From: a bacterium
GTDB lineage: Bacteria > Patescibacteriota > Patescibacteriia > UBA1558 > UBA10009
Reading direction: 5' to 3'
Assembly: GCA_018672055.1 (NCBI GenBank)
Contig: JABHGM010000001.1
Span: forward strand, 736,977 to 800,976
DNA length: 64,000 nt
The notes below the pieces were generated by a model. It worked only from the letters and a program-made list of their open reading frames with translations. It was not told where the DNA came from and did no database searches. Made by a program: the position numbers and the translations under genes. Below are positions 2,533 through 42,164 of this stretch, piece after piece. Within the stretch, counting starts at the first letter, position 1; every line of letters starts with the position of its first letter.

Positions 2533-2946
2533 TTAATCTAGATCAGGTCTTCCGTTATGTAGTTTTCTTTTATCACTTATCTTATTAATATTCATAAAAT
2601 CAATTATTCTTTGTTTTCTCTCATTCTTTTGTTTTGCTTTGAAATAAATTTCTAAAAATACTATTTTTTGAAAACTAGGAAAATATGCATAAATTACTCG
2701 AATACCACTTTTAGCTCCTCTACCTTTTAAACTCTTACATTGAAACTTTTTAATCTTAAAAAATTGTAACTCATCAGTATTACCAACACCTTGAATTTTA
2801 AAAATACTTCCACTATTAATTTCTTTGCCATGAAATAAATCTATACGATATTTCTTATTTACTTCTAAATCTTCAGTTAATGAAGAAAACTTCTTCATTA
2901 ATTTTTTAATATCTCTGGTAAATTCTTTCGTTTCCTCATATTTCAT
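2533..2946 (-). CDS. RelE/ParE-superfamily-like toxin, the downstream partner of the HTH-Panacea protein.
   Basis: 137 aa. Segment LKGRGAKSGIRVIYAYFPSFQKIVFLEIYFKAKQKNE resembles the RelE/HigB core (LKG...G.R.IY......I.LL.I). Abuts the antitoxin-like gene with a 1-bp gap. Confidence 0.45.
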   Translation of the reverse strand: MKYEETKEFTRDIKKLMKKFSSLTEDLEVNKKYRIDLFHGKEINSGSIFKIQGVGNTDELQFFKIKKFQCKSLKGRGAKSGIRVIYAYFPSFQKIVFLEIYFKAKQKNERKQRIIDFMNINKISDKRKLHNGRPDLD

Positions 2947-2947
2947 C

Positions 2948-3709
2948 CTAGTACTGTCTTACAGAAAATTCATCTGTCCTAGAAAAAACAGCTTCATAAT
3001 CAATAACTTTTAAATTATCTGTACCAATCCATGGTACATCTTTATGGGAGTATTCTTTTATTCTAGTTGCATTAAAATCTTTAAATCTTTCAATTTCCCA
3101 ATCAATAAAATCTTTTTCACGAGCAGTAAAACTTGATAAATCTGCATTTCTGAATGGAAGATACTTTTTTTGATCGTGTTGAAAATATTTATTTACAATA
3201 GCCCCTAAATCACCATCTTTTTCCATTTGTTTAACAATTTTTGTGAAAGCTACTGGTGTTGGACCAAAATGATTTTTTATATACTTAGCGCCTATTAACT
3301 GTTCTTCAAACTTTTCATAATAATCAAAATCAATAAAATACATTAATTTACAAATAACAGCTTCACCAACATTAGAACGAGCGCCAATTCGTTCTAAAAT
3401 ATATAATAATACTTCTTTAAATTTCTCTATTCTTTCTTGTGGTACAGAAATACGCATCTCTGGCTTTGGCTTTACTTTCTTTATAGTTTTAGCAAGTTTT
3501 ACTTTTGGTTCTAAATTTTCTTTACCAGCTAAAAAATCATCTAAAGACAATCCAAAAAATTTAGCAAAAGTTTGTGCTTCTTCAACAAGAAGCTTGCGTT
3601 TACCAGCCTCAATTTGTACATAAGTTGGCCTTGATACACCAATTCTTTTTGCTAAAAAATCCTGACTAATACCTTGTTTTTCTCTAAGTTTTTTTAAAAA
3701 AGTAGTCAT
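2948..3709 (-). CDS. Antitoxin-like protein: N-terminal XRE-family HTH fused to a C-terminal Panacea (DUF4065/SocA-like) domain.
   Basis: N-terminus LREKQGISQDFLAKRIGVSRPTYVQIEAGKR is a Cro/C1-type HTH. C-terminus KLMYFIDFDYYEKFEEQLIGAKYIKNHFGPTPVAF...DGDLG matches the DUF4065/Panacea signature. Confidence 0.55.
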   Translation of the reverse strand: MTTFLKKLREKQGISQDFLAKRIGVSRPTYVQIEAGKRKLLVEEAQTFAKFFGLSLDDFLAGKENLEPKVKLAKTIKKVKPKPEMRISVPQERIEKFKEVLLYILERIGARSNVGEAVICKLMYFIDFDYYEKFEEQLIGAKYIKNHFGPTPVAFTKIVKQMEKDGDLGAIVNKYFQHDQKKYLPFRNADLSSFTAREKDFIDWEIERFKDFNATRIKEYSHKDVPWIGTDNLKVIDYEAVFSRTDEFSVRQY

Positions 3710-3879
3710 AGTATTATAAATGAATTATTATTTATACTATGACTATATCAAATGTAAAAAATACTGTCAAGCTATATGTTGATAACTTTTACATTGCTAA
3801 TTTAAGAACCCTATCCACTTCTGATTATAATATTATACTTACCTTTATGCTTATTATATATAATTTAAAAATAATTATT

Positions 3880-4167
3880 CTAAAAACTATCCTTTAATTT
3901 CTCTAATAGACTAGGTTTACTTTCAACACACTTATCAATTACATCCAAACATTTTGGACAACTAGATGTCCGTTTTATTTTACAATGATTATCAGCTTCA
4001 CAAGGAGTATAATCTCTATTACTAGGTATTACATTTGCATATCGTTCATTACAAGGTACAAGATTTATTTTATAAATTGTATATCCTATAATAAAAGATA
4101 AAATAGATAATACAATAATTATTAATACAATTTTTCTTTGTTGATAATAAGTAAGTTTACTTGTCAT
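3880..4167 (-). CDS. Small membrane-anchored Cys-rich protein.
   Basis: 95 aa. N-terminal TM (IVLIIIVLSILSFIIGYTIY) then 6 Cys. Preceded by a conserved repeat and an 8-codon uORF overlapping its start (ATGA). Confidence 0.4.
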   Translation of the reverse strand: MTSKLTYYQQRKIVLIIIVLSILSFIIGYTIYKINLVPCNERYANVIPSNRDYTPCEADNHCKIKRTSSCPKCLDVIDKCVESKPSLLEKLKDSF

Positions 4168-4240
4168 ATATTTATATTTACTTCTTTCATTCTTTTAATG
4201 GTTTAAGCTGATTTGATTGGTTTTTTATGGTTTTCTTTTT
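4168..4240. repeat. Conserved intergenic repeat, copy 1 (core TTTAAGCTGATTTGATTGGTTTTTTAT).
   Basis: About 90% identical over ~68 bp to 11723..11795. Core shared with 4562..4607 and 5405..5455. Confidence 0.7.
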
Positions 4241-4279
4241 ACTAATTCTCTATTATTAATTTCTTAAACAATAATAAAA

Positions 4280-4561
4280 TTATCTATCAATAATCCAAGT
4301 AATAATTAATAGTATCAATACTATTGAATACACGGAAATTGCAAAACGCCAATTACCTGCCCAATATAAACCCATAACTGTTTTATCAGGATTTTTTTCT
4401 AAAAATGATTTAACAGAAGGATTAAATTTACTTATAAAACGTTCTCTGCTCATGTTAACTTTATGCATACATCTATTACAAATATTATCCTTATTTAAAT
4501 ACTCATTTAAAACTGATTTATTACAGAGTTCGCATTTTGCTAATTTTGTATTGTCTTTCAT
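4280..4561 (-). CDS. Small zinc-ribbon protein with a C-terminal TM helix.
   Basis: 93 aa. CELCNKS...CNRC motif. C-terminal hydrophobic segment ISVYSIVLILLIITWII. Confidence 0.4.
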   Translation of the reverse strand: MKDNTKLAKCELCNKSVLNEYLNKDNICNRCMHKVNMSRERFISKFNPSVKSFLEKNPDKTVMGLYWAGNWRFAISVYSIVLILLIITWIIDR

Positions 4562-4607
4562 ACTTTTATTCTTTTAGTAGTTTAAGCGGATTTGGTTGGT
4601 TTTTTAT
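4562..4607. repeat. Conserved intergenic repeat, copy 2 (core TTTAAGCGGATTTGGTTGGTTTTTTAT).
   Basis: Exact core match to copy 4. Overlaps the stop codon of 4604..4987 and lies just upstream of the 4561 start. Confidence 0.7.
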
Positions 4608-4987
4608 ATAAAATCCTTTAGTTGATTAGGATTACTTTTTAAGTCTACTAATACTAATTTATCAAAACATTCATTTTTAAGCAATATACGTTTTTCAGCT
4701 TCTAATACATAATCATCAAACCATTTAAACTCTTTTTTAAAGTCTATAGCTTCAGTTTTAAGCATATCCCAATTAGTAGGCTTTATCTTATTTAAATAAA
4801 TAAAACAATTTTTATCTAAAAATTGTTTTAAGTATTCTAATGTATTACTTTCTTCTCCTTTACAATGAGTAGTTAACCAATAACATTCATGATTATCTGT
4901 AACATACTTTAAAAACTCATATACATTCTTTGCAGGCTTTAAATCCTTAGTAATTAATACTTGATCTATATCTAAGTAGATGTTCAT
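4604..4987 (-). CDS. Hypothetical small protein with a possible HAD-like N-terminal DxD motif.
   Basis: 127 aa, begins MNIYLDIDQVLI (hhhDxDxT/V-like). Otherwise unrecognised. Confidence 0.35.
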   Translation of the reverse strand: MNIYLDIDQVLITKDLKPAKNVYEFLKYVTDNHECYWLTTHCKGEESNTLEYLKQFLDKNCFIYLNKIKPTNWDMLKTEAIDFKKEFKWFDDYVLEAEKRILLKNECFDKLVLVDLKSNPNQLKDFI

Positions 4988-5388
4988 ATTAATTCTTTAA
5001 TCTTTTTAATAAATTCATCTCCAAATTTATCTATTTCCATATAATCTTTTCTAACCACATGTTTAACACCTAATTTCTCTACTTCTTCATTGTATTCTAC
5101 ATTAGTTGAGATAGCAATTACATTATTCACATTAAATTTGTTTAAATCTAATACATGGAAAGAACCTCCTAATTTACAATCTTTATCTAATATTATTAAA
5201 TCAAAATTATTCTTTTCTAAGCTATTTACATAATCTTTAACCTGTATATACGTAGAAAACACAGTAACTGAGAAATCAAGAGGTTTAGATGTATTAAATA
5301 ACTCTTCTTCTAGTTTAAATAACCTATCCATAATAATAGATAGGGTCTTTAAATCATCTTCTAATATTAATATGTTTAGAGTTTTCAT
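4984..5388 (-). CDS. Orphan response-regulator receiver (CheY-like) domain protein.
   Basis: 134 aa. ILILEDD acidic pocket, DLIILDKD phospho-acceptor region, conserved K near the C-terminus. No kinase or output domain nearby. Confidence 0.5.
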   Translation of the reverse strand: MKTLNILILEDDLKTLSIIMDRLFKLEEELFNTSKPLDFSVTVFSTYIQVKDYVNSLEKNNFDLIILDKDCKLGGSFHVLDLNKFNVNNVIAISTNVEYNEEVEKLGVKHVVRKDYMEIDKFGDEFIKKIKELI

Positions 5389-5404
5389 ATTATATATTAC
5401 TCTT

Positions 5405-5455
5405 TTACTTTTTTTTCTAAGGTTATATCCGGATTTGGTTGGTTTTTATTTTTAA
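5405..5455. repeat. Conserved intergenic repeat, copy 3 (core CCGGATTTGGTTGGTTTTTAT).
   Basis: Shares the 21-bp core with copies 1, 2 and 4. Lies between the stop of 5482..5832 and the start of 4984..5388. Confidence 0.6.
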
Positions 5456-5481: not shown

Positions 5482-5832
5482 TTAACTAAATAACCAAATA
5501 TAAATATTTTTACAATAATCATAATGTTTAATAGTAAAATCTCTTTCATAAATACCTATATAACCTTCACTAGATAAATATATCAATAAAAAGAAAGCAA
5601 CTAAATATAGTAAAGGTACAATATAATATATTATTTTTACATTAATACTATACTTATGTAATTTATAAGCAATAAATGTGCTTATGAATAATAGAACAGT
5701 TTGAAAAAATAATACCCCATTAATAACAGTACAATCCGTATGTTCGTTTATTTTATTAAAAATTAAACTAAATCCATATATAGCTAAAATACCTAACAGA
5801 AATTGTATAATAATTAATAATACCTTTTTCAT
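5482..5832 (-). CDS. Small integral membrane protein (about 3 TM), last gene of the mod-res-nuclease operon.
   Basis: 116 aa, hydrophobic throughout. Starts 4 bp after the nuclease gene. Confidence 0.45.
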   Translation of the reverse strand: MKKVLLIIIQFLLGILAIYGFSLIFNKINEHTDCTVINGVLFFQTVLLFISTFIAYKLHKYSINVKIIYYIVPLLYLVAFFLLIYLSSEGYIGIYERDFTIKHYDYCKNIYIWLFS

Positions 5833-5836
5833 ATAT

Positions 5837-6583
5837 TTAAATAATTTTATTTACTTCATCTCTATACTTACAATAATCACATTCAATACCAGCTTTAGGT
5901 ATACTTTTACTTTTTAAACATGTGTCAGCTTCTATAATCGCTTCATCTACCCAATTATCGTTCCCTTCATATGGTATAAGGGTTACTTCAAACTCTAACT
6001 TAGCATCAAAGGCTTCTTTATCTGTAATACCATTACAATACACAAAATAGCCTGTATTTGAGACTTTAAAGCCACTTTGTCTAAGTAGCCACTGATATAC
6101 TTCCATTTGCCTCTTATATGATATTTGCCAGTCTTGATCTAAAGCTTCAATCTTACCTTCTTTACTAGTAGATTTATAATCTACTACATATAATATACCT
6201 TTTTTATCTACCCAGATATCATCTATAGCGCCAAATATTATTAAACCTGTTTTTTTATGATTAACACGTATTCCTTTAAAATTCTCTCTCCATTCATCCA
6301 TCATATCGTGTTTAAAAGGTACTAAATCTATATTATATGATTTGAGTAATGGATGTACCTTATTCTTAGCTCTATGTATATCAAATTCTTTTTTGAGTAA
6401 AGTATCTACTGCACTATTTAAATTAAAAGGATAACCTGGAGGTCTTTTAATTCCAAGCTTATTATCTAAATAAAAGCATTTAGGACATTCAATAAATAAA
6501 TCTATTTTAGATCTAGATAATTTCCATTGACTTCCTTTATAATTCCATTCTGCTTTTCTTGGGATGTTATAGTATTGGGACAT
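5837..6583 (-). CDS. Standalone Cas4/RecB-family PD-(D/E)xK nuclease with a putative 4-Cys Fe-S cluster.
   Basis: Motifs GAIDDIWVD (motif I), VVDYKST (DYK, motif II), RQMEVYQWLL (QhxxY, motif III). N-terminal CPKC plus C-terminal C...CDYC. 1-bp gap after res. Confidence 0.6.
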   Translation of the reverse strand: MSQYYNIPRKAEWNYKGSQWKLSRSKIDLFIECPKCFYLDNKLGIKRPPGYPFNLNSAVDTLLKKEFDIHRAKNKVHPLLKSYNIDLVPFKHDMMDEWRENFKGIRVNHKKTGLIIFGAIDDIWVDKKGILYVVDYKSTSKEGKIEALDQDWQISYKRQMEVYQWLLRQSGFKVSNTGYFVYCNGITDKEAFDAKLEFEVTLIPYEGNDNWVDEAIIEADTCLKSKSIPKAGIECDYCKYRDEVNKII

Positions 6584-6584
6584 G

Positions 6585-9503
6585 TTATATTAATTTACCC
6601 TTAGCATTTGCTTCTGTAACTTTAGCTAATTCACAAATTTCACTTATTGAAGCATTGTTATCTTTTAGTCCATAAAAATGATTTTGACCTAACAAAATAT
6701 ATATCCATTTTCTTTCCATTCTATCTTTTGGATTTAATTTATTTATCCTTTTAACCCAATCAAGTGTTGCTAATTGTTTTTGTTTAACATTCAAATCATT
6801 TAAATCTTTATCCGATTTTGTTTCAATCAAATAAATTTTTTCTTTTGTTTTCACTATGAAATCTGGATAATATAATGATAATAAGCCGTCAGTTCTAATA
6901 TAAGTTATATGTGCGAATGGATGACGATATTCATCAATTTTTATAAAACTTTCAACTTTTGAATCTCCGTCGATATATTCAATAAAATCTTTTTCAAGAC
7001 CTCCTTTATTTGATGGAAATGGTAGTCTTTCATAAATACTTTTAGCTACCTTTAAAGAAAAGCTTTCTCTCATTTTCATTTCCGTAATTTCTGAAAAATT
7101 TTGTTTTCTTACAATCCCTTCGCTAGATTCTATGCTACTCTGCATTTCAAAAATTAGTTTTCCAACTTCTTTTACAATATGCTGAGTAACGATTCCATTT
7201 TTTAATAAGAGAACTTTCCAATTACTGCCATCAAATGGATCAAACCTTTTACCAAACAATTTTGTTCTAATATATTTATCAATAGTTTTTACTAAGTTTA
7301 TATTGTTTATTTGCATAGTAGGAAAAGCTCTAGCAGCTTTTCTACCAATACGTCCCATCCTATTCACTACTGTATTTAAAACTTTTTCTAAATATTCATT
7401 ATAACTTTGTGAATTGAATAAATTTGCATTTACTATATAATCACCAAATCTTGTTTTTACAGTAACCTCTTCTGAAAAAAATGATTCACCATCTTTTTTA
7501 AAAAATTGTTGCAGCTGTTCTAATTTAAAAGCCTCAAATTTTTCTAATTTATCTAGTTTCAAATCTGTAGATTTTAACTCCTCATCTGAATCTTTAACTA
7601 TATATGGCCAAAACAAATCATATTTTTCATAACCATCTTTAAGTTTAACTTTTATTAAATCTCCAACTACATCTGAACCAGAAGTAATTTCTACATTAGA
7701 CTCACCAATCAAACCTTCTGCTAAGAGATCGTCATAAAATTGAACAAAAGATGGATGTTCAATAATCGATAATATATCTAAATAATTAGTTGGCTCCTGT
7801 TTATCTAATAATAATTTTTTTCGATTCTCATTTTTAATATCCTGAAATTCTGGATCCCTCCACATCAAACGTAAACCTCTTCCAATTGTTTGCTCTAATA
7901 ATATTGGTGCATCAGAAGCTCTTAAAGGTACTATTACACATATATTATTCACATCAAAACCTTCTCTAAGCATCAAAACAGAAACTACTACTCTAGGATT
8001 TTTATGTTTATCCATATTAAACAGCCTTTGTTTAATATCAAACCATTCTTTTTCTGGCACTTCACCTTTTTTATTAGAGTCAATTTGCATGACCTCTTCT
8101 ACTTTTAATCCTTCTTGAATTAAAAATTCTGTTACTAAAGGTGTAACTTTAGTATCCTCGCACATTACCATCATTTTAGGATGCTTATTACTCTCTCCTT
8201 TTTCATCCCCAAAAAATTCTACAAAATGTTTTTCTAACTTGTTCAATTTTTTTAATCCAGCTCTTAACATTAATCTTTGACCATCTGATAAATCTATGGG
8301 TTTATTACCCTCTCTTATAGCTTTAAATTCTAATGGTAATTCTGCAATCTCCTTTCTTTTATCAATTGCTATAATTTTTACCATTCCTTTTTGAATTGCT
8401 GTTTTTAATTCAAAATCAACAATAATATAAGGAAAAAAATGTTTTGTTCTTTTTTGCCCACTTCCGGTAGTATCATAGGGCGTTGCAGAAAAATCGACTT
8501 GCATCATCTTTTTCTCTTTTCCAGCTGTAATTTGATTTAAACTTTTCTGCCATTCTACTTCTTGTATTTCTCCATAACTTTTATTTTCATGAATATGATG
8601 AGCTTCATCATTCATAATTACTAAATCATCTAAATCTACTAAATACTCTAACTCTTTACCTCTAGCATAAGCAGCATCTAAAGCTCTTAAATCATTGCCA
8701 GTTGCTTTTCCTGGGCTTATTGGCATAATGTCACGAATTATAGAACTTGGATTTTCTAATGGACTATTTAATTCTTCATCTAATTTTTCTTTTTCTAAAA
8801 ATAAATGCCAATTAGTAATACCTATCATTCCATCACCTGTAACTTTTGTTCCAATTTCCTCCTTCTTAGCTACACTACCTTGAATAAAACCAAATAACTC
8901 ATCTCTATAACTTGGTGGTATAAAAACATCTTGAAATAAATAAAAATCAGATTTCTCAAATTCTCTTTCACCTTTATTATTTTCTTTTCCTAAAAATGCA
9001 TCTAATAGTCTCTCGTAAACTATTAATCCAGGTGCAACCAAAAGAAAATTCTTTGAATATCTATTAGTTTTTTCTTCCTCATATTTAGCGTTTAAGTATT
9101 GCCAAATCATTAAAGCGTGCATAACCCAAGTTTTACCCGTACCTGTAGCCATCTTAATGGCATATTTGGGAATTTCATATTTTGGTTTTTTTAATTCTAC
9201 TGAATTAATTTCTAACAGCAATTCTGAATTAATATTCTGATATATATCTACCACTGATGTAGTTTTTAAAATTTCATGAAGGTAAATCACATTCAAAATT
9301 GCTTGCTTCTGACCTTCGTGAAAATTTATTTTACGAGTATCAATATGTGGCTCCTTAAACCAAAAATTTAAAAGATCTTTAGTAATAGGAGAAACCTTCG
9401 ATATAATTTCCCCGCTATCCCAAAATCCTAAAACTACTTCAGTTATATTTTTAGCTAATTTTAATGGAATATCTCGCGTTCCTATATTTAATGGTGTTGG
9501 CAT
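6585..9503 (-). CDS. res: Type III restriction endonuclease Res subunit (SF2 DEAH helicase plus C-terminal PD-ExK endonuclease).
   Basis: Walker A MATGTGKT, DEAH box (IMNDEAHHI). C-terminal YYPDF...IYLIETK endonuclease motif. Lies directly downstream of mod, the Type III arrangement. Confidence 0.8.
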   Translation of the reverse strand: MPTPLNIGTRDIPLKLAKNITEVVLGFWDSGEIISKVSPITKDLLNFWFKEPHIDTRKINFHEGQKQAILNVIYLHEILKTTSVVDIYQNINSELLLEINSVELKKPKYEIPKYAIKMATGTGKTWVMHALMIWQYLNAKYEEEKTNRYSKNFLLVAPGLIVYERLLDAFLGKENNKGEREFEKSDFYLFQDVFIPPSYRDELFGFIQGSVAKKEEIGTKVTGDGMIGITNWHLFLEKEKLDEELNSPLENPSSIIRDIMPISPGKATGNDLRALDAAYARGKELEYLVDLDDLVIMNDEAHHIHENKSYGEIQEVEWQKSLNQITAGKEKKMMQVDFSATPYDTTGSGQKRTKHFFPYIIVDFELKTAIQKGMVKIIAIDKRKEIAELPLEFKAIREGNKPIDLSDGQRLMLRAGLKKLNKLEKHFVEFFGDEKGESNKHPKMMVMCEDTKVTPLVTEFLIQEGLKVEEVMQIDSNKKGEVPEKEWFDIKQRLFNMDKHKNPRVVVSVLMLREGFDVNNICVIVPLRASDAPILLEQTIGRGLRLMWRDPEFQDIKNENRKKLLLDKQEPTNYLDILSIIEHPSFVQFYDDLLAEGLIGESNVEITSGSDVVGDLIKVKLKDGYEKYDLFWPYIVKDSDEELKSTDLKLDKLEKFEAFKLEQLQQFFKKDGESFFSEEVTVKTRFGDYIVNANLFNSQSYNEYLEKVLNTVVNRMGRIGRKAARAFPTMQINNINLVKTIDKYIRTKLFGKRFDPFDGSNWKVLLLKNGIVTQHIVKEVGKLIFEMQSSIESSEGIVRKQNFSEITEMKMRESFSLKVAKSIYERLPFPSNKGGLEKDFIEYIDGDSKVESFIKIDEYRHPFAHITYIRTDGLLSLYYPDFIVKTKEKIYLIETKSDKDLNDLNVKQKQLATLDWVKRINKLNPKDRMERKWIYILLGQNHFYGLKDNNASISEICELAKVTEANAKGKLI

Positions 9504-9514
9504 ATAATTTTGAT

Positions 9515-11095
9515 TTATAATTCTTCTATTACAATGCTTTCAAAACCAAAAACATCTACTGCTTTAACACATACTTTTCTTTTTGATTTTTTAGGCACTC
9601 TTAATGTAGTTTTTTTTATTACATGATATGGATCATTATCATTCTCTATATTTTCTCTATAATCTTGCCATTTGCTCCTAAATGTTTTACCGTCATAATC
9701 TGGATCAATACTCCAATATTCAATAAGGCTTAAAGGATCGCTAGATATAATTTCTTGTAGCTTCTCTTTGTCTTTATCGTCTAATGGTATATTGTCTGGG
9801 GACAACAAAACATAATTTTCTAATTCAATATTTATAACCTCCTCGTCCTTTTTACCCCCTACTTCTAATTGAATAGGTTTTATAGTTAAATATTGTAACG
9901 ATGAAAATCTAACTTTTCCACTATCAACTAGCTTATCATAACCTTTCTTACTTTTTAGTGTGTCTAATAAATCTGGAGGAATTACTAAAACCTCTAATTT
10001 ATCATCATTTAAGCTTTGAATAGCTTGAGTAATATCATAAGTAAAATTCCAGCCTAAAACTATGACCTTTTTCCACCCGCCCATAAATGAATTACGTAAT
10101 TCCATAGCTTTTTGTAAAGTATTTAAGCCAGTTAATTTATTAGGAGAATCAACAAAAATCAAAGTTTTAGAATCCTTGATATAACCTATATTCCTAATAT
10201 AACTATCTTCATCTTTAAAGGGAATTGCACCATACAATTGCAAAACTACATGAGATAAATCACCTATTCTTTTATATAATTTTGAAGAGGCTAAAACTTC
10301 CTTTTGATAATCTCCTATAGATTGATATAAAAATGGTTTTGTATCTTCGTCAATAAATCTTTTTCTAGAAATTAAATTAGCTGGCTTCCCTATATCAGAT
10401 ATAATCCACCTTCTATTTAATTTTTCAGAAACCGAACCTATAGTTCCAGAACCTGCAAAAAAATCAGCAACAATAGAATTTTCATTCGAAGATGATTCTA
10501 TTATCCGTTGAATAAGTGATTCTGGTTTTTGAGTTTTATAGTTTTTATTTTCAGAACTCATTGGATTAAGCATACTAACATACCATACATCTCCAACTCT
10601 CCTGCCTTTGAACTCCGCTATAATATCATCTTCAACTGGCTCTCTATCGTGTAATTTTATAAACTTTTTCAAATAAGGTTTAAATTTTCCATCATCATAA
10701 GGTGCATTATTTGCAAATATTTTACCATCTTTAATATAATTCTCCCATCTTTTTATTACACCACTATCTGTTCTTTCTTTTTCATAAAGAATATTAAAAA
10801 TAGCATTTTGACTTTTTGTATAATAAAAAATCATCTGACTTCTTTTTGGAAAATTATTTTCACTTTCCACCCACGACCCTTGATATTCCCAAGTAATATG
10901 TGATCCAAAATTATTTTTACCAAAAATATCATCCAACAATAATTTTACATAGTGACCAACATGCCAATCTATATGTACATATATGGATCCTTTGTCTGAT
11001 AATAATTCTTTCATTAAAGCAAGTCTAGGATACAACATTTTAAGATATGAGACCGTCCCTTCTCTCCAGGTATCAGAATATGCAAATTGTTCCAT
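9515..11095 (-). CDS. mod: Type III N6-adenine DNA methyltransferase Mod, C-terminal portion. In frame with 11108..11476 but separated from it by a TAG stop.
   Basis: [62 protein letters not shown] parallels the region after DPPY in Type III Mod proteins. Later FAGSGT (SAM-binding motif I). Confidence 0.75.
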
Positions 11096-11107
11096 AGTAG
11101 TAGGTTT

Positions 11108-11476
11108 CTACTCCAAATCTTTTCCTTTTAATTTAATCTTGATTCTATAATCAGCTTTAGAATCGAACGGTGGATCAATATATATAAGATCTATCTTGCC
11201 TCTTAAAGAATCTAAATTACTAGCTGGATCACCAGCTAGTAAAGCTTGGATTACTAGTAAATTATCTCCATAAATTAAACGATTAATCCAATCGACTTCT
11301 GATTCCTCAGGCATTCTCCCACTAAACAAACCAGCGGAGTCCTTAGCTGGTAAAACCAATTCATTTGTTTGTAATGTAAGTTTGCTTTTACTAGATAACC
11401 TTTCTAATATCTGTTCTACCTCTTTTTTACCCTCTTTTACGATCTTTGGTAATTCTTCTATTAAAGATTTTGTCAT
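11108..11476 (-). pseudogene. mod: Type III Mod, N-terminal portion ending right after catalytic motif IV (DPPF). An in-frame TAG at 11108-11110 separates it from the rest of mod.
   Basis: IDLIYIDPPFDSKADY (DPPF motif). Same reading frame as 9515..11095, with only 4 codons between the TAG and the downstream ATG. Confidence 0.65.
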
Positions 11477-11537
11477 ATAATATAAATTTATTTATTTACT
11501 CTTATTTTTCCACTTTTTACCTAAGTTGTCAATAAAA

Positions 11538-11566
11538 ACAGAGTTTTACTCTGTTTTTATATTATA
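11538..11566 (-). terminator. Intrinsic terminator after the 813-aa gene. A probable mod promoter (TTGACA) follows on the minus strand.
   Basis: AAAAACAGAGTTTTACTCTGTTTTT hairpin with a T-run on the minus strand. Confidence 0.45.
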
Positions 11567-11722
11567 ATTAACTAAATTATTAATTAGTATCTGATTCATT
11601 TTTTAGTATAAAAGCTTGTTTATCATTTTTCTCATTAAATATACATGATGGTTCTAACATATGAAAATGCCACTTCTTACCTTCTTTATGTAGCTTATAT
11701 GCTATTTCTTTTATTTTATTTT

Positions 11723-11795
11723 ATTTATATTTACTTCTTTCATTCTTTTAAGGATTTAAGCGGATTTGGTTGGTTTTTTATGTTTTTCTTTTTGA
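11723..11795. repeat. Conserved repeat, copy 4, overlapping the stop codon of the 813-aa gene.
   Basis: ATATTTACTTCTTTCATTCTTTTAAGGATTTAAGCGGATTTGGTTGGTTTTTTATGTTTTTCTTTTTG is about 90% identical to 4168..4240. Confidence 0.7.
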
Positions 11796-14219
11796 TTTAG
11801 ATTTGTTTAATTTTTTCTTTCTTTTTCTTTCCCATTCTTCGTGCCACTCTGTATGCCAAGAAGGCATTTTCAAATAAATTTGTTGCGTGGCATTGCATAG
11901 ATTAATAAGACCTGGTATACGATCATGTTCTTTCTTTGTTTTTTTATCCCAGCAATAAGGTGGTCCCAATTGATTTAATAACTCATTACCAGTTAAAATT
12001 AAAACAGGATTAATAGGTCTTTCTGACTTCCAATATTTTCTTCCTGATTTAGTGATTTTTTTTAGTTCTATAATTTCATTTCTTGTTAGTGATTTTCGTA
12101 AAGTACTAAAAACTAATATAGCGCCTGGAAAAGTTTTTGCTAGATATCGCATTCTTGTAAAATCTTTTTTTTCAAACATTCCATATGTTTTGCACTCACT
12201 AAACAATAAGCCATCTTTTTTCTGACCGTAAACTGAATCCTGCCAAAATGCTGCAAAATCTGCTTCTATATTTTCTTTGTCAGCAGTAATAGCAGAAAAA
12301 CTTAATAATGGTGTTATACGCATCGTGGTCATTTTATATTCATTGAAAAAATCTAGTGCTAAAAGAACTGCATAAGCACCTTCTGCATAATTCGGTATAC
12401 TAAATGGTCCAACAGTCTTATAACACCATATAGAGTTTTCTAAATTACCAATAGCAGAAAAATCATTGAGACATAATTGACACAAAAAGTTATTACTAAT
12501 TTTTTCAAGCTCAAACCAGGACTTTCTTGAACAATATGGACATTTAATACGTATCCCTAATTTAAATACTCCTTTTTCAACTAAATAATTATGTAACTTG
12601 TCACCTCTTGTTTTATCACTCAATCTTCTTTTTATTTCGCCAATTGGCATTTCTCTTTCTTGATTGATCTTATTATTTGCTTTTGGACTTCCAGCTATAT
12701 TTACACTACCACCATTCATATGCTCAAAAATGTTTAGTAGCTTTTCATTTTTTAAAGTTGATAAATAACCATTAAGTTGTTTATGAATTTGCTTTGCTAA
12801 TTTTCCTGAAGACGATAATTTTGGTTCCCATCCTAAATCTTTCAGCCAAGCAATAACAATATTTTCAGATAATGGAATATTTATTGTTTCGTTAGAATTA
12901 TCTTCAACAAGTCTCACGAGTCCGTTATTTCCAACTCGCCAATTACCTCGTAAAGCCATAAGGCCAGATATCTCTCGTATAAAATTTTTAGCAGAAGATT
13001 TAGGAAAAACTTCTGCAATATATTCATCTGCACCATAAAAACTAAATATAACTTCATTTGCACAACGTGGATTTCCATGATAACTGTATTTATCAGCAAA
13101 ATCTGGCAGTAAAGTAGTGAATCTTATATTATTTTTCAAATCTGCAACATCAAATGATTCTTCTTGACTACCATATATATTGTCTGGTATTGCACCATCT
13201 TTATCACGAGCCCACTCATCCCAAACCCTTGGATACCAATGTTGTAGTACGTAAAAACTATCTTTAGATAGGTCATTAGAATCTGGTTTTATTTTTATGG
13301 TCTTTGCAAAATTTTCAACCTCCTCCATCGTACAATTACGTGATCTGATAATTGAAGCCCTATCACAAACGGTCGGATTATGTTTCCATGGACGACGATA
13401 CATTTTTAAAAAATTAATAACAATTTTTTTTATTACAGGCTCACTCTTCATCTGTTTTGCTACAGGCATCACCACTCTACCCATTGCCCTTAAATTCCAA
13501 TAATCAACTATATCTTCAACCTTGTTTGCATCCATAAAGTAAATACAAGCATCTCTACCAAAACGTGTATGGCTATTATTATTTATTTTGTGTAGCGTAA
13601 TTCTACGTGGAAACAAAATATTGTTCTTTAACATTTTATTTAAATTTTTAATTTCAAATTTTGGAGTCTCTATTTCAAGTGGTCCATAATAATGTTTTTT
13701 TAAATTTGGAATTACCTCAGGTAAAATTTCACCAAAAAAACTAGACCAAAATAAAGAATATTTTCTTGGTAATTCAGGAAATGCAATTTTCATTGGATAT
13801 TTCATTTTATATTTAAAGTCTTGTTCAAAAATATCATCTAATATTTCATAAATACCAAGCCCATATGAAGGGATTAAATTAAAATCTTCATTTATATTAT
13901 CCCAAATTTCATTTGATTTTATAATTTTTAAACCACTATCAACAATATATTTAGGAACTGATTTTGATAATTGTATAAGAATATCCGGATCAAATGCATC
14001 AAGATAACCGAGTATTACATCTTTTGCTAAAGGAGCTTTTATGGTTCCATCTTTCCATGTAGCAGGCATTATTTTATATAATTGTATAATTGGAAAAAAA
14101 GATCCCCCCCACAAAGTTGAGCTTAATTGAATTGCCTTTTTAACTTGTGTCGAACTTTTTGGATCAACTAAAAAAGCAATTTTCAATGGCCTAGTTTTAA
14201 TATTAATTGTACCTATCAT
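11778..14219 (-). CDS. Large cytoplasmic protein of unknown function with an internal zinc ribbon and a basic C-terminal tail.
   Basis: 813 aa with no TM and no Walker motifs. CPYCSRKS...CQLC zinc-ribbon. C-terminal RKRKKKLNKSKSKRKT. Sits between the glycan cluster and the R-M operon with its own terminator. Confidence 0.5.
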   Translation of the reverse strand: MIGTINIKTRPLKIAFLVDPKSSTQVKKAIQLSSTLWGGSFFPIIQLYKIMPATWKDGTIKAPLAKDVILGYLDAFDPDILIQLSKSVPKYIVDSGLKIIKSNEIWDNINEDFNLIPSYGLGIYEILDDIFEQDFKYKMKYPMKIAFPELPRKYSLFWSSFFGEILPEVIPNLKKHYYGPLEIETPKFEIKNLNKMLKNNILFPRRITLHKINNNSHTRFGRDACIYFMDANKVEDIVDYWNLRAMGRVVMPVAKQMKSEPVIKKIVINFLKMYRRPWKHNPTVCDRASIIRSRNCTMEEVENFAKTIKIKPDSNDLSKDSFYVLQHWYPRVWDEWARDKDGAIPDNIYGSQEESFDVADLKNNIRFTTLLPDFADKYSYHGNPRCANEVIFSFYGADEYIAEVFPKSSAKNFIREISGLMALRGNWRVGNNGLVRLVEDNSNETINIPLSENIVIAWLKDLGWEPKLSSSGKLAKQIHKQLNGYLSTLKNEKLLNIFEHMNGGSVNIAGSPKANNKINQEREMPIGEIKRRLSDKTRGDKLHNYLVEKGVFKLGIRIKCPYCSRKSWFELEKISNNFLCQLCLNDFSAIGNLENSIWCYKTVGPFSIPNYAEGAYAVLLALDFFNEYKMTTMRITPLLSFSAITADKENIEADFAAFWQDSVYGQKKDGLLFSECKTYGMFEKKDFTRMRYLAKTFPGAILVFSTLRKSLTRNEIIELKKITKSGRKYWKSERPINPVLILTGNELLNQLGPPYCWDKKTKKEHDRIPGLINLCNATQQIYLKMPSWHTEWHEEWERKRKKKLNKSKSKRKT

Positions 14220-14319: not shown

Positions 14320-15726
14320 TCACAACCCAATAACCTCCCCATCCATATCATGAAGTACCTCTACATTAAAATGATTTAATATAGTAGGTGCATAATCTAA
14401 TATATTAATATCTTTCTTACTATTTAATACACCTTCACCATAAGCTAAGAATATACCTTTTTTTTCATTTTCACCAGTCCAATGGTCTGGAGCCTCAAAA
14501 ACATGTTTAGAGCCTAAAGAACCACTAAAATGAGTATGAGGAGCTTGATCTACTATTAAATCAGGAGCTTTACTTAAATCAGAAGACTTATATATTTCTT
14601 CCCGAGTAAATACCTTATTTACTATACTCATACCCTTATACTCTAATTCTTCTAACTCACGTATTAATTTATTCTTAAATTCTAAGTCTTTACTTAGTAA
14701 GTATATAGGGCCTTGACCAGAAGCAAAACATTTAGAATTATCCCAATCTATTTTATCTGCTTTACCTGCATACATTACTTGTCCTTCTTTATTTGGTATC
14801 ATTTCTTGTACTTTACGTGGTACTAGTTTTTTAGCTAGTTCTTTTAAATGTAGCTTAGTAAATAGTTTAATTAAAGATTCTCGGTTAATACCTATTTTTT
14901 CTAGTTTGGAACTAGTATTATCTTGTTTAATCTTTAAATAGCCTTTTTCTTGTAAATACGTATTAATATTGAATTTAAATTTAATTTCATTAGTACCATG
15001 ATCAGACATTAAAAAGAATAATCTATCTGGGTACTTAGTAATTAATGAATTAATACCCTCATCTATTATTTGCCAAGCTTTAAATACTTTATCATCTCCA
15101 TAGTGGTAATGCTGTAATACGTTTATTAAATAAACAGCTACCATAAAGAAATCAAAGTTACCTTCTTTTAAAAGATACTCAGCAACTTCAAAACGTACTT
15201 TAATTAGTCTATATATTTCATCTATTACTGAAGTCTCATCTTTTTTCATTAAACTAATATTCTGAGGTAATGCTCTATAATCAAATTTATTCTTTAAAAG
15301 CTTTTCTAAAGGTTCAGGATAGGTATACTTAGATTCCATAGCATCTGGGCCACCTGAAACCATTACTCCATTTATTTTATGTGGCGGATAAGTTGTAGGC
15401 ATATTTACAACGCCTACTCGGTAACCAGCATCGGATAAGTAATCAAATATTTCTTTACCTTTAAAATTGTCAGAAGAAGGTATATATATTTTTCTATTGG
15501 CTACATCTACGTTTTCCCACCAATAAACACCAAGTTTAGCTGGATTTAAACCTGTAGAAAAACATTTCCAATTTGGTGATGTTACTGGAGGAAGTTGTGA
15601 TTCTTGAATACCCCAAGTTCCTTGTGTCTGTAGTTTCTTAAATGTAGGTAGTTTATCTTCATCAATCCATTTTTGAATATAGTTCCAACTACCACCATCT
15701 AAACCTATTACTATTACTTTCTGCAT
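14320..15726 (-). CDS. Alkaline-phosphatase-superfamily enzyme (type I phosphodiesterase/nucleotide pyrophosphatase-like), last gene of the glycan operon.
   Basis: N-terminal IVIGLDGGSW metal-binding motif. SGGPDAM and LMSDHGTN motifs typical of the AlkP core. Overlaps the upstream GT gene by 13 nt. Confidence 0.55.
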   Translation of the reverse strand: MQKVIVIGLDGGSWNYIQKWIDEDKLPTFKKLQTQGTWGIQESQLPPVTSPNWKCFSTGLNPAKLGVYWWENVDVANRKIYIPSSDNFKGKEIFDYLSDAGYRVGVVNMPTTYPPHKINGVMVSGGPDAMESKYTYPEPLEKLLKNKFDYRALPQNISLMKKDETSVIDEIYRLIKVRFEVAEYLLKEGNFDFFMVAVYLINVLQHYHYGDDKVFKAWQIIDEGINSLITKYPDRLFFLMSDHGTNEIKFKFNINTYLQEKGYLKIKQDNTSSKLEKIGINRESLIKLFTKLHLKELAKKLVPRKVQEMIPNKEGQVMYAGKADKIDWDNSKCFASGQGPIYLLSKDLEFKNKLIRELEELEYKGMSIVNKVFTREEIYKSSDLSKAPDLIVDQAPHTHFSGSLGSKHVFEAPDHWTGENEKKGIFLAYGEGVLNSKKDINILDYAPTILNHFNVEVLHDMDGEVIGL

Positions 15727-29436: not shown

Positions 29437-30618
29437 TTATTCAATTTCTATAACCTCTGAAGTACTTTCGTCTAATTTCTTTACTTCTATATCTTTTTCT
29501 TCACTTACACCTTTAACTTCTGATATTTCTTCTTCAATTACTTCTTCTTTAGTTATTTCAATTATTTTATCATTAACTTGATTTACTAAATTATTTCCTT
29601 CTTTAAGCTTTTCTAAAGTATCAACAAAATTCTCTTCTACTAATAGCTCACTGCTACTTACCATATATTTTTTAGCTTCTGAAACCTTTTTAAATAAATC
29701 ATTTAATGATTGTTTTTCAATATCAAATAATGGTTCTCTAACACAAATAGTGGTTCCGCCACTTCTTTCACATCTTCTATTACTTAAACCAACTTCTATT
29801 TCATTTAAACTTATAGTAATAACTTCAATCTTTTTATTAATTCTATTTATTTTATCATCAAGTAATGCTGTTAAATCTTCATTAGTAAATTCAATCTCTG
29901 CTATTTCTCCTGATTCTTGCTGTACAGCTAAAATCTTTATAGCATCTTGTTCTGCATTTTCTGAAGAATCAATAACTTCAGCAATTATCTGTTCTACATT
30001 CTCTAATTGAATATCCTCATTTACTTGATTTAAAACTTCAACTGCGTCTTTACTATCAATAGTTATTTGTTTAGCTAAATCAGCAACTTTATCTGATTCT
30101 TCATCTGCTTTATTTACTATACTCAGTGACGCACTAGCTGATGATAAATCTTGTTTTAATTTAGAAACAACAGTATTAATGTATTCTTCTTTTTCTGCTT
30201 TAGTTAAGTTTTCTGACTGAGCTAACTTAATAACTTCATCTTTTCTATTTTGTACATGTTTTAAATGAATTGCAGCTTCTTGATATGAAGACATAGCTAA
30301 AACTAATTCAATCTTTTCTATAGTCTTTTTAACAAAGTATAATGTTCTATCTGGTCTATATTCTGCTTTAGCAGCAAGTCCAGTTGAACCAAGTAAACCA
30401 AATATTAATAATGTAGCCATAATCTTACTTGGAGCTGGTACAAATCTTTTTTGCCAGTCAATCATTAAAACCTTGAAATGATATGTCCAAGGTGTTTGAT
30501 AGGTGATAGTGTCTCTATCAACTTTTTTAACTAAAAAATCACGAGTTGAATTTAACCATTCTTCTCGTGGTTCGATACTATCTAATTTATTAAATTGTCT
30601 AGTAATACGTTCTGGCAT
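29437..30618 (-). CDS. Putative membrane-anchored anti-sigma factor (single TM, extracytoplasmic coiled-coil/acidic domain).
   Basis: Follows the ECF sigma gene with a 5-bp gap. TM IMATLLIFGLLGSTGLAA. Long acidic coiled-coil C-terminal region. Confidence 0.4.
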   Translation of the reverse strand: MPERITRQFNKLDSIEPREEWLNSTRDFLVKKVDRDTITYQTPWTYHFKVLMIDWQKRFVPAPSKIMATLLIFGLLGSTGLAAKAEYRPDRTLYFVKKTIEKIELVLAMSSYQEAAIHLKHVQNRKDEVIKLAQSENLTKAEKEEYINTVVSKLKQDLSSASASLSIVNKADEESDKVADLAKQITIDSKDAVEVLNQVNEDIQLENVEQIIAEVIDSSENAEQDAIKILAVQQESGEIAEIEFTNEDLTALLDDKINRINKKIEVITISLNEIEVGLSNRRCERSGGTTICVREPLFDIEKQSLNDLFKKVSEAKKYMVSSSELLVEENFVDTLEKLKEGNNLVNQVNDKIIEITKEEVIEEEISEVKGVSEEKDIEVKKLDESTSEVIEIE

Positions 30619-30623
30619 TTTAT

Positions 30624-31148
30624 TTAAGTAAATTTTTGTAATTCTTTTATTGCCCTGTGGATAATTACTCTAACGTTGCCACTGGACTTATCAACTATTT
30701 TAGATATTTCTTTTATACTAAACCCTTCTATATATCTAAGAACTATAATTTCTCTTTGATCGCTTTTTAAAGAAGCTATTAATCTTTCTAAGTTCTGCTT
30801 ATCTATCTCTTTGTCAGGATCTATTTTTAATTGATCTGGTATATCCTCAGAGTCATAGATTAAAGGCAATTCTTCTTTTTCACGTGTTCTATAATAATCA
30901 ATTATTAAATTTCTAGCTGTTCTATATATAAATGGTTTAAATTGCTTTATCTTCTTTCCTTCTAATATATACTCCCAAACTTTAAGGAAAGCCTGACTAG
31001 CTAAATCTTCTGCTATTTCTTCGGTAGCTACTTTAAAGTATATAAACCTATATATAGGTTTTGAATACTTATCGAATAACTCACCATAAGCTTCAGAGTC
31101 ACCCCTGCTAGCCTTAAAAAGAATTAATTTTTCATTATCTATAGACAT
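30624..31148 (-). CDS. ECF-type sigma-70 family RNA polymerase sigma factor.
   Basis: Region 2 (FIYRTARNLIIDYYR) and region 4 HTH (IIVLRYIEGFSIKEISKIVDKSSGNVRVIIHRAIKEL). Confidence 0.75.
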   Translation of the reverse strand: MSIDNEKLILFKASRGDSEAYGELFDKYSKPIYRFIYFKVATEEIAEDLASQAFLKVWEYILEGKKIKQFKPFIYRTARNLIIDYYRTREKEELPLIYDSEDIPDQLKIDPDKEIDKQNLERLIASLKSDQREIIVLRYIEGFSIKEISKIVDKSSGNVRVIIHRAIKELQKFT

Positions 31149-31490
31149 TAAATAAGACGGTAAAAACTAAAAAATGTTACAAACATAAGTATATATTATG
31201 TAATAAATTTTGTCTATAGTCAAATAGAATTATAGAAATGGCTAATATTAGCTAAATTATAAAATGGCTGTTAATAAAATAAAAAAAGTTAGATTTTATG
31301 CTTTATCAATTAAACCCAATATTAATCAAATAATTGTTAAATTTTATGTAAATAAGAATACAAAGTGAATACTTAAATACAGATAATATATCTTGTACTT
31401 CTACTGTAATCTAGAAGTAAGTAATATATTTATATTACTATTAACATTTTACTTCTAGAATATTCTACAAATAAATGGTAATATATAAAT

Positions 31491-31790
31491 ATGATTAATA
31501 AAACTAAATTTAGTATGCCTTTAAGAGTCTCTGTAAGTGAAGCTGCCAGACTTTTTGGTGTTTCAACTAAAACTATTCGTACAGCTATAAAAAATGAAGA
31601 CTTACACTACATCGTAGTAAATGGTAGATATAAGCTGAACTTTGATAGTCTTATCAAATGGTCTCAGTTATCCACAAGGCGTCATACTCAATTTAACAAT
31701 CAAGGCTTAGGTCAGTATGTGGATAAATGGAAAATTACTAATAAAAAATATAGTCCTAATCCAGAACTAATAAAAAAGTTAAAATCTTAA
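31491..31790 (+). CDS. Small HTH DNA-binding protein (excisionase/MerR-like HTH_17 type).
   Basis: LRVSVSEAARLFGVSTKTIRTAIKNEDLHYIVVNGRYKL. Confidence 0.45.
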   Translation: MINKTKFSMPLRVSVSEAARLFGVSTKTIRTAIKNEDLHYIVVNGRYKLNFDSLIKWSQLSTRRHTQFNNQGLGQYVDKWKITNKKYSPNPELIKKLKS

Positions 31791-32998: not shown

Positions 32999-33257
32999 TG
33001 TTATACATTGTTGATAAGGTCCAAGTTAAAGTTAATGGATTAAATATTAATTGAAAATAATTTACTTTATCTGTAACAGAGAAGTGGTAGAGTAGACCTT
33101 TACCATTTTGAGACGTATGAATAAAATGTACTTTATCTACCTTGTATATTTTACGACGCCAACTAAAGAACTTAGGAAATATTTCACTTTTCTTAAAACT
33201 AGCAACTACTTCTATACTTTCATTTATCTTATCGTACATAATATTAAACAGTTGCAA
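32991..33257 (-). CDS. Small hypothetical protein encoded between lexA and dinB, overlapping both.
   Basis: 88-aa ORF overlapping lexA by 14 nt and dinB by 8 nt. No recognisable family. Confidence 0.4.
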   Translation of the reverse strand: MQLFNIMYDKINESIEVVASFKKSEIFPKFFSWRRKIYKVDKVHFIHTSQNGKGLLYHFSVTDKVNYFQLIFNPLTLTWTLSTMYNNG

Positions 33258-41238: not shown

Positions 41239-41324
41239 ATTAATAATATTATACCACTTATTTAAACACTTGTCTTATTAAAAAAACATATTATTTAAAA
41301 TATGTTTATTTATATAATTATATA

Positions 41325-42011: not shown

Positions 42012-42164
42012 AATTGATATATATTATATCACTTATTTACTAATAATAAAACAGTCTTAAATAATGATACTTATAACAGGTATTGACAAAATATACTATA
42101 TATGCTATACTATATAGTATAATAAAAATAGAAATAATAATAGCACTTAAACAAGGAGACTATC

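Follow-up and report, generated by a model that had tools for sequence, protein, structure and literature searches.

What kind of element recurs, almost unchanged, at the junctions between unrelated genes of a bacterial chromosome? The question is raised by a 64,000-nt stretch of DNA (the window; positions 736,977 to 800,976 of the forward strand of contig JABHGM010000001.1, assembly GCA_018672055.1, with positions below counted from its first letter) from a bacterium assigned to the Patescibacteriota (GTDB lineage Patescibacteriia; UBA1558; UBA10009). An initial annotation, made from the letters alone, had noticed a junction repeat in four copies and offered three readings of it: a shared regulatory element of untranslated regions, a processing or Rho-utilisation site, or the recombination junction of a small-gene cassette array. 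Our analysis demonstrated that this repeat family is real, non-random and undescribed.

All the neighbouring genes lie on the minus strand, and the element is therefore described on that strand. Four copies in the same orientation share the core AAAAACCAA(C/T)CAAATC(C/A)G, at 4202-4228, 4581-4607, 5424-5452 and 11755-11781. The element reads, in order, a TAA, block A (AAAAACCAA(C/T)CAAATC(C/A)GCTTAAA), a 4-nt linker and block B (TAAAAGAAT(G/A)AAAG), and its copies are the following:

11709..11793, minus strand: copy 4, with block A at 11755-11781 and the TAA at 11778-11780 forming the stop of the 813-aa gene
5389..5452, minus strand: copy 3, with an 18-19 nt core at 5430-5447 plus an A-run identical to copies 2 and 4, and a weak match to block B
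4554..4609, minus strand: copy 2, with block A at 4581-4607 (27/27 against copy 4) and the TAA at 4604-4606 forming the stop of the 127-aa gene
4156..4240, minus strand: copy 1, with block A at 4202-4228 (two mismatches) and 72-85 nt in common with copy 4

The 27-mer TTTAAGCGGATTTGGTTGGTTTTTTAT occurs exactly at 4581-4607 and 11755-11781 and with two mismatches at 4202-4228, and found no match in 100 dinucleotide shuffles of the sequence. The 17-mer GGATTTGGTTGGTTTTT brings in copy 3 as well, at 5431-5447. When a profile hidden Markov model (HMM) built from the four copies was run on the window, it returned them at E values of 1e-10 to 1e-15 and no further match with E <1. The exact matches, the shuffles and the profile thus bear out the four places originally annotated. 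The copies are related to different degrees. Copies 1 and 4 had been estimated to be about 90% identical over about 68 bp, and the alignment agrees, with 87% identity over 85 nt (4156-4240 versus 11709-11793) and 67/72 positions in the contiguous part. Copies 2 and 4 have ~45 nt in common, and copy 3 has only the 18-19 nt core in common with the others, its flanks being unrelated.

In copies 1, 2 and 4, the 27 nt of block A carry zero to two mismatches and the 14 nt of block B carry one; the linker between the blocks is different in each copy. Block B continues into ATG AAA GA in these three copies, and in copy 2 it shows an apparent tandem duplication (AAAAGAAT AAAAGTAT) leading into ATGAAAGA, which is the start of the 93-aa gene. 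The copies lie at or near the upstream stop codon, and two of them overlap it, as had been annotated: the TAA of the motif is the real stop of the upstream gene in copies 2 and 4, and the upstream stop comes 51 nt (copy 1) or 31 nt (copy 3) before the core. Copy 4 takes in the last ~6 codons of the 813-aa gene, and 13 nt that code for the 813-aa protein's K/R tail in copy 4 recur in copy 1 as non-coding sequence. On the other side, the next ATG lies 19-35 nt past the 27-nt block in copies 1-3, with 35 nt to the ATG of the 134-aa gene in copy 3. The annotated small open reading frame (ORF) after the junction is thus present at copies 1-3, but the description needs correcting for copy 4, which is followed by a mini-ORF and then by an ORF without a start codon. 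The reading frames concerned are:

11711..11743, minus strand: mini-ORF MKEVNINKIK* (10 codons) in copy 4, with its first seven codons (MKEVNIN) as in copy 1
4164..4190, minus strand: mini-ORF MKEVNINI* in copy 1, whose TGA overlaps the ATG of the 95-aa gene (4165-4167) in an ATGA overlap
11580..11720, minus strand: 46-codon ORF without a start codon (NKIKEIAYKLHKEGKKWHFHMLEPSC...), in a frame different from that of the copy-4 mini-ORF and with no family match

From its sequence, we read the start-less 46-codon ORF as a probable 5′-truncated gene, which would mark the left end of an inserted segment.

On the transcribed strand the element had been described as unstructured, C-rich and G-poor, and both folding and base composition agree with this description. 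Folding of the copies on both strands gave results no better than shuffled sequences (minimum free energy −0.1 to −10.2 kcal/mol, z −0.9 to +1.1), and an inverted-repeat search found no pair common to the copies. The coding strand overall has more G than C, but the copies are locally C-rich and G-poor on the mRNA strand, where they rank among the top 0.4-5% when 40-nt windows are ordered by C minus G; the C-rich unstructured tract is ~25 nt long. A scan of the copies for sigma-70 hexamer pairs reached at best 7-9 of 12 positions, equal to random 91-nt windows, with no common position, and the Bacteroidota-type −7 box (TAnnTTTG) is absent from the copies, the window containing 40 + 51 matches on its two strands against ~46 expected per strand. 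No Rfam covariance model matched any copy, with E values of up to 5 allowed, and only one tRNA in the window reached the gathering score. The initial annotation had recognised no described element here; we likewise obtained no match to Rfam or to known repeat classes. By eye, we also considered and dropped a Xer/dif-like site (no 11-6-11 dyad), a two-tetrad G-quadruplex on the plus strand (the GG runs are not kept in copies 1 and 2), a −1 frameshift heptamer A AAA AAC (wrong frame, because the stop codon comes first), an extracytoplasmic function (ECF)-type AAC...CGT promoter (no CGT at the correct spacing) and complementarity to the 16S 3′ end (the window contains no rRNA gene).

The contiguous genome surveyed comprised 82.2 kb, made up of the window, 8.7 kb before its start and 9.5 kb past its end. 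A search of it for the core and its position relative to gene boundaries found only the four copies, all of them within 7.6 kb, co-oriented and in register with stops and starts, and none in the other 74.6 kb. Exact-pattern scans of 185,579 GTDB species genomes gave only chance 18-mer matches whose flanks show no extension, and scans of IMG/VR and, in two passes, of JGI metagenomes gave chance 18-mer matches of which none reached the flanking blocks; in profile scores, the viral and metagenome matches reached at most 21.6 bits, against 38-53 for the true copies. Megablast and blastn searches of phage and plasmid collections gave no match, and a phage origin was rejected on this ground. Also rejected as extra copies were ~22 matches in Saccharibacteria/Nanosynbacter, where the 18-mer falls by chance in a conserved coding segment, and a metagenome locus (L186) at which the supposed extended copy lies inside a low-complexity 477-aa ORF. 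The 18-mer CGGATTTGGTTGGTTTTT sits in a conserved stretch (CTTTTTTCTGTTTTTTGGCC...CTAGCGGATTTGGTTGGTTTTTTGGCAAATTCG) of many oral Saccharibacteria genomes, apparently a gene segment. The motif is absent from the loci with homologues of the 134-aa protein, the 813-aa protein or the backbone in other organisms. The element therefore appears to be private to this island, as far as public data show. The organism itself is present in >50 metagenomes and >100 ENA assemblies, with contigs of up to 0.96 Mb, and look-ups with seven proteins encoded in the window (six of them in or flanking the island), in each of which 23-24 long contigs were read, found one identical arrangement and no strain variation at the island.

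The island is ~14.7 kb in size, and its slot is flanked by the Phosphodiest and Polysacc_deac_1 genes. Sister taxa (~70% protein identity) have a backbone of glycosyltransferase, Phosphodiest, Polysacc_deac_1, CysN-like and PAPS reductase genes, and in them the slot contains either 0.3 kb with an IS200/RayT-like remnant or one KAP NTPase gene. Given that the slot varies among sister taxa, the repeats sit inside a defence-type island at a demonstrable hot spot. The order of the island is as follows: the 813-aa gene, copy 4, the start-less ORF, a hairpin terminator, and the mod and res genes of a Type III restriction-modification (R-M) system; then a Cas4-like nuclease gene, the gene for a 116-aa membrane protein, copy 3, the 134-aa gene, the 127-aa gene and copy 2; and finally the 93-aa gene, copy 1, the 95-aa gene, an HTH-Panacea gene with its 137-aa partner, and the 174-aa, NUDIX and 533-aa genes. 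Copies 4 and 1 bracket a 7.5-kb segment that contains the Type III R-M system.

On these data we tentatively favour, with a probability that we put a little short of even, the reading that a single duplicated junction has acted as a homology patch and a common leader for inserted modules, resembling the promoter-early stem-loops (PeSLs) of phages or the insertion of R-M units with long target duplication. Several observations argue for an insertion junction. The copies are confined to a variable island, where they bound unrelated, independently mobile modules; independent mobility is supported by the families of the 813-, 134- and 127-aa proteins, each of which occurs in quite different neighbourhoods elsewhere. 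Copies 4 and 1 share their 72-85 nt together with the 13 nt that change from coding to non-coding and the seven mini-ORF codons. The start-less ORF stands right after copy 4, where the cut end of an insert would be expected. Of the three readings offered at the outset, the one that fits best is the third, in which the repeat is a small-gene cassette array's recombination junction, given the confinement, the bounding of modules and the duplication in copies 1 and 4. The accompanying description of the flanking genes as small, Cys-rich or transmembrane proteins does not extend to the 134- and 127-aa proteins, which belong to widespread soluble families, nor to the R-M block of 6.3 kb.

The history of insertion set out next, from its ancestral state on, and any role of the copies in expression are inferred from these observations. 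The ancestral junction would have linked the 813-aa gene to the 95-aa gene, its original downstream neighbour. It would have begun with the last part of the 813-aa gene, continued through a C/A-rich spacer without structure and an A-rich region for initiation, and closed with a start codon and the codons just after it. This junction would then have multiplied as gene modules were inserted at it, in a chromosomal hot spot for accessory and defence genes. The 7.5-kb segment inserted between copies 4 and 1 would comprise the truncated ORF, the terminator, mod/res, the Cas4-like gene and the 116-aa, 134/127-aa and 93-aa genes, and the shorter copies 3 (18-19 nt) and 2 (45 nt) would delimit the 134/127-aa and 93-aa modules inside it. 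Given that copies 2 and 3 lie within the segment, either the incoming DNA already had the motif or the junction was hit repeatedly, and the PeSL model of T4-type phages is compatible with both. The mechanism may have been insertion with long target duplication, as for R-M units, or the excision of circles and their re-integration by homologous recombination between copies, as in PeSL cassettes. Each copy would supply or abut the upstream stop and give an unstructured A-rich initiation region to the next ORF, including the ATG AAA GA of copies 1, 2 and 4, and we propose that the copies persist because each now serves as an intercistronic leader.

Some findings weigh against this reading. No empty site or variant allele was found, every contig read having the identical arrangement, so that no insertion or excision event is directly observed. 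Two near-invariant blocks around a freely varying linker look like selection rather than neutral decay, and copy 3 keeps a perfect 18-19 nt core amid unrelated flanks. For insertions to recur at exactly one 19-nt core, the site must be preferred or the incoming DNA must already bear the motif. Finally, the survey covers 82 kb of a genome of at least 0.5-1 Mb.

How does the element compare with known systems? PeSL cassettes of T4-type phages extend from stop to start upstream of ORFans, recombine, excise circles and shuffle modules, and they carry a consensus sigma-70 promoter and a stable stem-loop terminator, both activities having been shown experimentally (Arbiol et al. 2010, PMC2839356). 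The present element is similarly a conserved intergenic cassette of 50-90 nt that reaches from the upstream stop to the downstream start before small unrelated genes in a hyperplastic region, and its direct repeats could swap or excise modules by homologous recombination. Unlike PeSLs, however, it has no sigma-70 promoter above background and no stem-loop, it lies in four copies in an island of a bacterial chromosome, and it is known here from assembled contigs of one arrangement. The second likeness is with R-M units whose insertion left a long target duplication (Nobusato et al. 2000; Furuta et al. 2010, PMC2853133). Such insertions have been recognised where R and M both lie inside an insert of <20 kb flanked by a direct repeat of >30 bp (Furuta et al. 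2010), and the examples published include Type III systems. The segment between copies 4 and 1 agrees with all three of these sequence properties, being 7.5 kb in length, with repeats of 72-85 bp at 87-93% identity and no mobility gene. It differs in that two extra, shorter copies bound non-R-M modules and several extra genes lie in the segment, and in the nearest relatives for which context is available (~70% protein identity) both the entire island and the motif are absent, so that there is no single-copy empty site to compare; a relative with a 91%-identical Phosphodiest protein is on a 2.5-kb contig only.

In anatomy the element also recalls two families of gene arrays. As far as they are outlined in a later account, the rAID arrays (for recombinase-associated acquired interbacterial defence) of Bacteroidales contain co-oriented short genes with a conserved intergenic motif (Ross et al. 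2019, in PMC12247911). Here, too, the 134-, 127-, 93- and 95-aa genes are all on the minus strand of an acquired variable locus, with the motif at three junctions. However, where a rAID array is headed by a predicted tyrosine recombinase and encodes (orphan) immunity proteins, no such recombinase is adjacent here, the gene upstream of the first copy encodes the 813-aa nuclease-like protein, and the small genes form a very short array without resemblance to immunity families. The host is Patescibacteria-like and not a member of the Bacteroidales. With integrons the locus shares promoter-less, co-oriented, unrelated small genes with a repeated junction and an adjoining toxin-antitoxin module, such modules being common beside the arrays of chromosomal integrons. 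Integron attC sites, being imperfect inverted repeats (R''-L'' ... L'-R'), form a hairpin when the DNA is single-stranded, whereas the present repeat has neither a palindrome or hairpin nor an R''/R' consensus: neither of the core sites RYYYAAC/GTTRRRY occurs within 60 nt of any copy on either strand. In addition, no intI was found (82 kb, ORFs >=100 aa), and the repeat lies on the 5′ side of the ORFs and takes in their start codons, unlike a 3′ recombination site. In function, then, the element works most like the repeats of PeSLs or of R-M long target duplications, and it is a member of none of these systems. We class it among the junction repeats that mediate or record modular insertion, in a Patescibacteria-like genome.

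The two conserved blocks with their variable linker, and the perfect core of copy 3, could instead reflect a selected cis-regulatory DNA element, that is, an operator, or a promoter for a non-sigma-70 holoenzyme or a foreign RNA polymerase, placed before each small gene. The small genes would then be co-regulated apart from the R-M operon, and the near-identity of the copies would mean strict recognition, like that of phage promoter sets. It is in keeping with such a role that all copies have the same orientation and lie 10-35 nt upstream of a start codon, that the 134-aa gene's homologues in other genomes are preceded by ordinary sigma-70 promoters, and that an ECF-type sigma factor is encoded in the window (30624-31148). 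We nevertheless consider it unlikely, if deserving of serious weight: the copies contain neither a sigma-70 match above background nor a Bacteroidota-type −7 box, copy 4 precedes only a 10-codon mini-ORF and a start-less ORF, the island encodes no polymerase or dedicated regulator and no cognate factor is evident, and the motif is absent before all other genes in the 82 kb and conserved in no relative. Acting at the level of RNA, the element might serve in the intercistronic region for Rho loading (a rut-like site), for RNase processing, as the target of a small RNA (sRNA) or protein, or as a stand-by or re-initiation leader. Its unstructured and C-rich, G-poor nature against a coding strand with more G than C is consistent with this, as are the stop codon within copies 2 and 4 and the ATGA stop/start overlap in copy 1. 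Shine-Dalgarno sequences are rare in the organism (8/62 genes), which makes A-rich unstructured leaders plausible as initiation regions, and terminator prediction gave nothing in the intergenic regions that separate the R-M genes from the small ones, the sole terminator-like hit on the minus strand of this stretch lying within the 134-aa gene. Yet the C-rich tract, at only ~25 nt, is below the typical length of rut sites, which span 60-80 nt; the window contains no complementary sRNA-like sequence, the only match on the other strand having three mismatches (at 37715); there is no Rfam match; and the co-duplication of 13 coding nucleotides and seven codons in copies 1 and 4 is left unexplained. 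A role of this kind is, in our judgement, quite improbable as the main account of the repeat.

It would also be conceivable that the 19-27 nt core is the attachment site of a site-specific recombinase encoded elsewhere, and the locus a true cassette array like integrons or rAID. The co-oriented short genes with a conserved intergenic motif correspond to the outline of rAID arrays given in PMC12247911, the identity of copy 3 is limited to a short core, as at attachment sites, and unrelated mobile modules lie in a slot that is a hot spot. We hold this to be very doubtful, given that no integrase, resolvase or transposase was found among the ORFs >=100 aa scanned or those with precomputed Pfam matches in the 82 kb, that the core has neither dyad symmetry nor a hairpin nor the attC R'/R'' consensus, that the 813-aa neighbour resembles a nuclease or sensor and not a recombinase, and that the motif occurs in no other genome or metagenome scanned. 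It is likewise a long shot that the locus represents an undescribed, hairpin-less cassette-capture system of Patescibacteria, in which a recombinase located elsewhere would load defence and ORFan cassettes with a ready leader and start at a fixed hot spot, and which would parallel integrons or rAID arrays in function. That the repeat is the end of an insertion sequence (IS) or of a miniature inverted-repeat transposable element (MITE), or a genome-wide repeat like the repetitive extragenic palindromes (REP), present here by chance, is suggested by little beyond its being a short intergenic repeat in an AT-rich genome, and its probability is close to negligible. The annotation had itself named membership of an IS or MITE terminal repeat as a check, and the outcome was negative, with no terminal inverted repeats, target-site duplications or hairpin and no transposase; moreover, no copy lies outside the island in the 82 kb, and all are co-oriented and in register with stops and starts.

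The genes flanking the junctions are:

11778..14219, minus strand: 813-aa protein of a widespread uncharacterised family found in several phyla
5482..5832, minus strand: 116-aa predicted membrane protein without a family, encoded by the last gene before copy 3
4984..5388, minus strand: 134-aa protein of a small-protein family with 278 relatives, many in Patescibacteria, and no Pfam model
4604..4987, minus strand: 127-aa protein of a widespread family with 484 cluster representatives and no Pfam model
4280..4561, minus strand: 93-aa protein with Cys-x2-Cys pairs and a C-terminal hydrophobic segment, without a family
3880..4167, minus strand: 95-aa protein with a hydrophobic N-terminal segment and a tail rich in Cys, without a family

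The 813-aa family has 560 relatives at E<=1e-5 among 8000 candidates scored; among the best 120 listed, identity is 50-62%, apart from one 100%-identical partial copy of the query. Its taxa include Patescibacteria, Acidobacteriota and Desulfonatronum. The family is not in Pfam, NCBIfam, PADLOC or PHROGs, and its profile has no sequence match in the PDB. Homologues elsewhere stand alone beside Thoeris-like ThsB-TIR/SLATT, Type III R-M or AbiTii, and no conserved small partner was found downstream of them. The AlphaFold model (pLDDT 84.8) gave weak best matches in Foldseek, to the cA4-activated nucleases Cdn1/Can2 (CARF plus PD-(D/E)XK) and to the nuclease domain of MspJI, which suggests that the protein may be a defence nuclease and a candidate single-gene defence system. 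Since these matches are to nucleases and are not recombinase-like, we rejected the idea that the protein is a recombinase. Its K/R-rich C-terminal tail is of the usual family length, so that the codons inside copy 4 are probably native. A conserved pair of 813-aa and 134-aa genes, for which a 794-aa neighbour at locus L099 had been considered, was also rejected, because BLASTP shows no relationship.

The small flanking proteins have no Pfam, NCBIfam, PHROG or PADLOC family. Elsewhere, the 134-aa family occurs in R-M and defence neighbourhoods (loci L095 and L099) without the motif. The 127-aa protein matches its family over the full length, which places the stop in copy 2 at the native C-terminus; the family also includes members fused to larger proteins. 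No linkage between the 134-aa and 127-aa genes was seen in the other genomes examined.

The remaining features of the island are:

11532-11560, both strands: terminator-like hairpin with a perfect 13-bp stem, a 3-nt loop and flanking A/T runs, splitting the 813-aa unit from the R-M operon
9515..11476, minus strand: Type III mod methyltransferase gene, a 653-codon frame with a single in-frame TAG at 11108-11110
6585..9503, minus strand: Type III res helicase-nuclease gene (ResIII, Helicase_C)
5837..6583, minus strand: Cas4-like PD-(D/E)XK nuclease gene
2533..3709, minus strand: HTH + SocA/Panacea antitoxin-like gene (253 aa) and its 137-aa partner, the next island module, with no repeat copy

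The hairpin lies ~150 nt downstream of copy 4 and outside the repeat. Because of the in-frame TAG, mod is called as two proteins of 122 + 526 aa. The TAG is located 14 codons past the DPPF motif, and the same split was present in all assemblies read. Judged from the sequence, mod could be a nonsense pseudogene (an inactive Mod with an intact Res), a two-piece enzyme restarting at the ATG four codons on, or a case of read-through. The HTH_3 + SocA/Panacea module is preceded by a near-consensus sigma-70-like promoter (TTGACA-17-TATAGT at 3770-3742), and its 137-aa partner gene overlaps; a 19-nt palindrome (3703-3745) covers the start codon and is a possible operator. The gene and its partner are probably a PanA-type toxin-antitoxin pair. 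In the sister taxa, the near-empty slot contains a decayed IS200/RayT-like (Y1 transposase-like) gene (L105/L106 11445-11700; L107 3409-3660), of which a 54-aa ORF (YDYTWDGYYFVTICADYGRHFFGE...) and a downstream out-of-frame HDHIIRNE... segment remain, and in L103/L104 a KAP-family NTPase gene occupies the slot.

Farther along the window, a 929-aa protein (34096-36885, plus strand) has a Por_Secre_tail domain (C-terminal sorting domain of the type IX secretion system; E 1.5e-11). Its gene runs on the opposite strand, and the GC skew is reversed in that region. The domain match had raised the possibility of a Bacteroidota chromosome, which was rejected, as the backbone proteins are closest to Patescibacteria; the Phosphodiest/alkaline-phosphatase neighbour of the island (14320-15726), for example, has its closest relatives there, at 65-72% identity. 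The 929-aa protein is unexpected for Patescibacteria and may be encoded by an acquired gene. The ECF-type sigma factor gene (30624-31148) is followed by a gene for a DUF5667 protein, a possible anti-sigma factor, and lies near a LexA (33244-33861) and Y-family polymerase (31787-32998) pair (region 29437-33861, minus strand). Near-identical sequences AAATAAGTG(G/A)TATAATAT occur at 41239-41270 and 42012-42045 on the minus strand, before a 105-aa ORF and uppS (41325-42011), respectively; both sequences are promoters of the extended −10 type (TGnTATAAT), with their ends only 10-14 nt ahead of the ATG. An extended −10 element so near the ATG suggests very short leaders or leaderless mRNAs in this organism.

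In summary, the evidence comes from four copies in one clonal organism, and the general importance of the element is currently limited to that extent. Should the core be a selected signal instead, its length and strictness would be unusual for a regulatory site. If the reading of a duplicated junction is true, the locus records the assembly of a defence island in the candidate phyla radiation: a Type III R-M system, widespread small proteins and ORFans would all have entered as unrelated modules at a single stop-leader-start junction that could be reused, with no mobility gene in sight. Both the PeSL idea and long target duplication would thereby reach a lineage that is streamlined and uncultured and whose genome plasticity is little understood.

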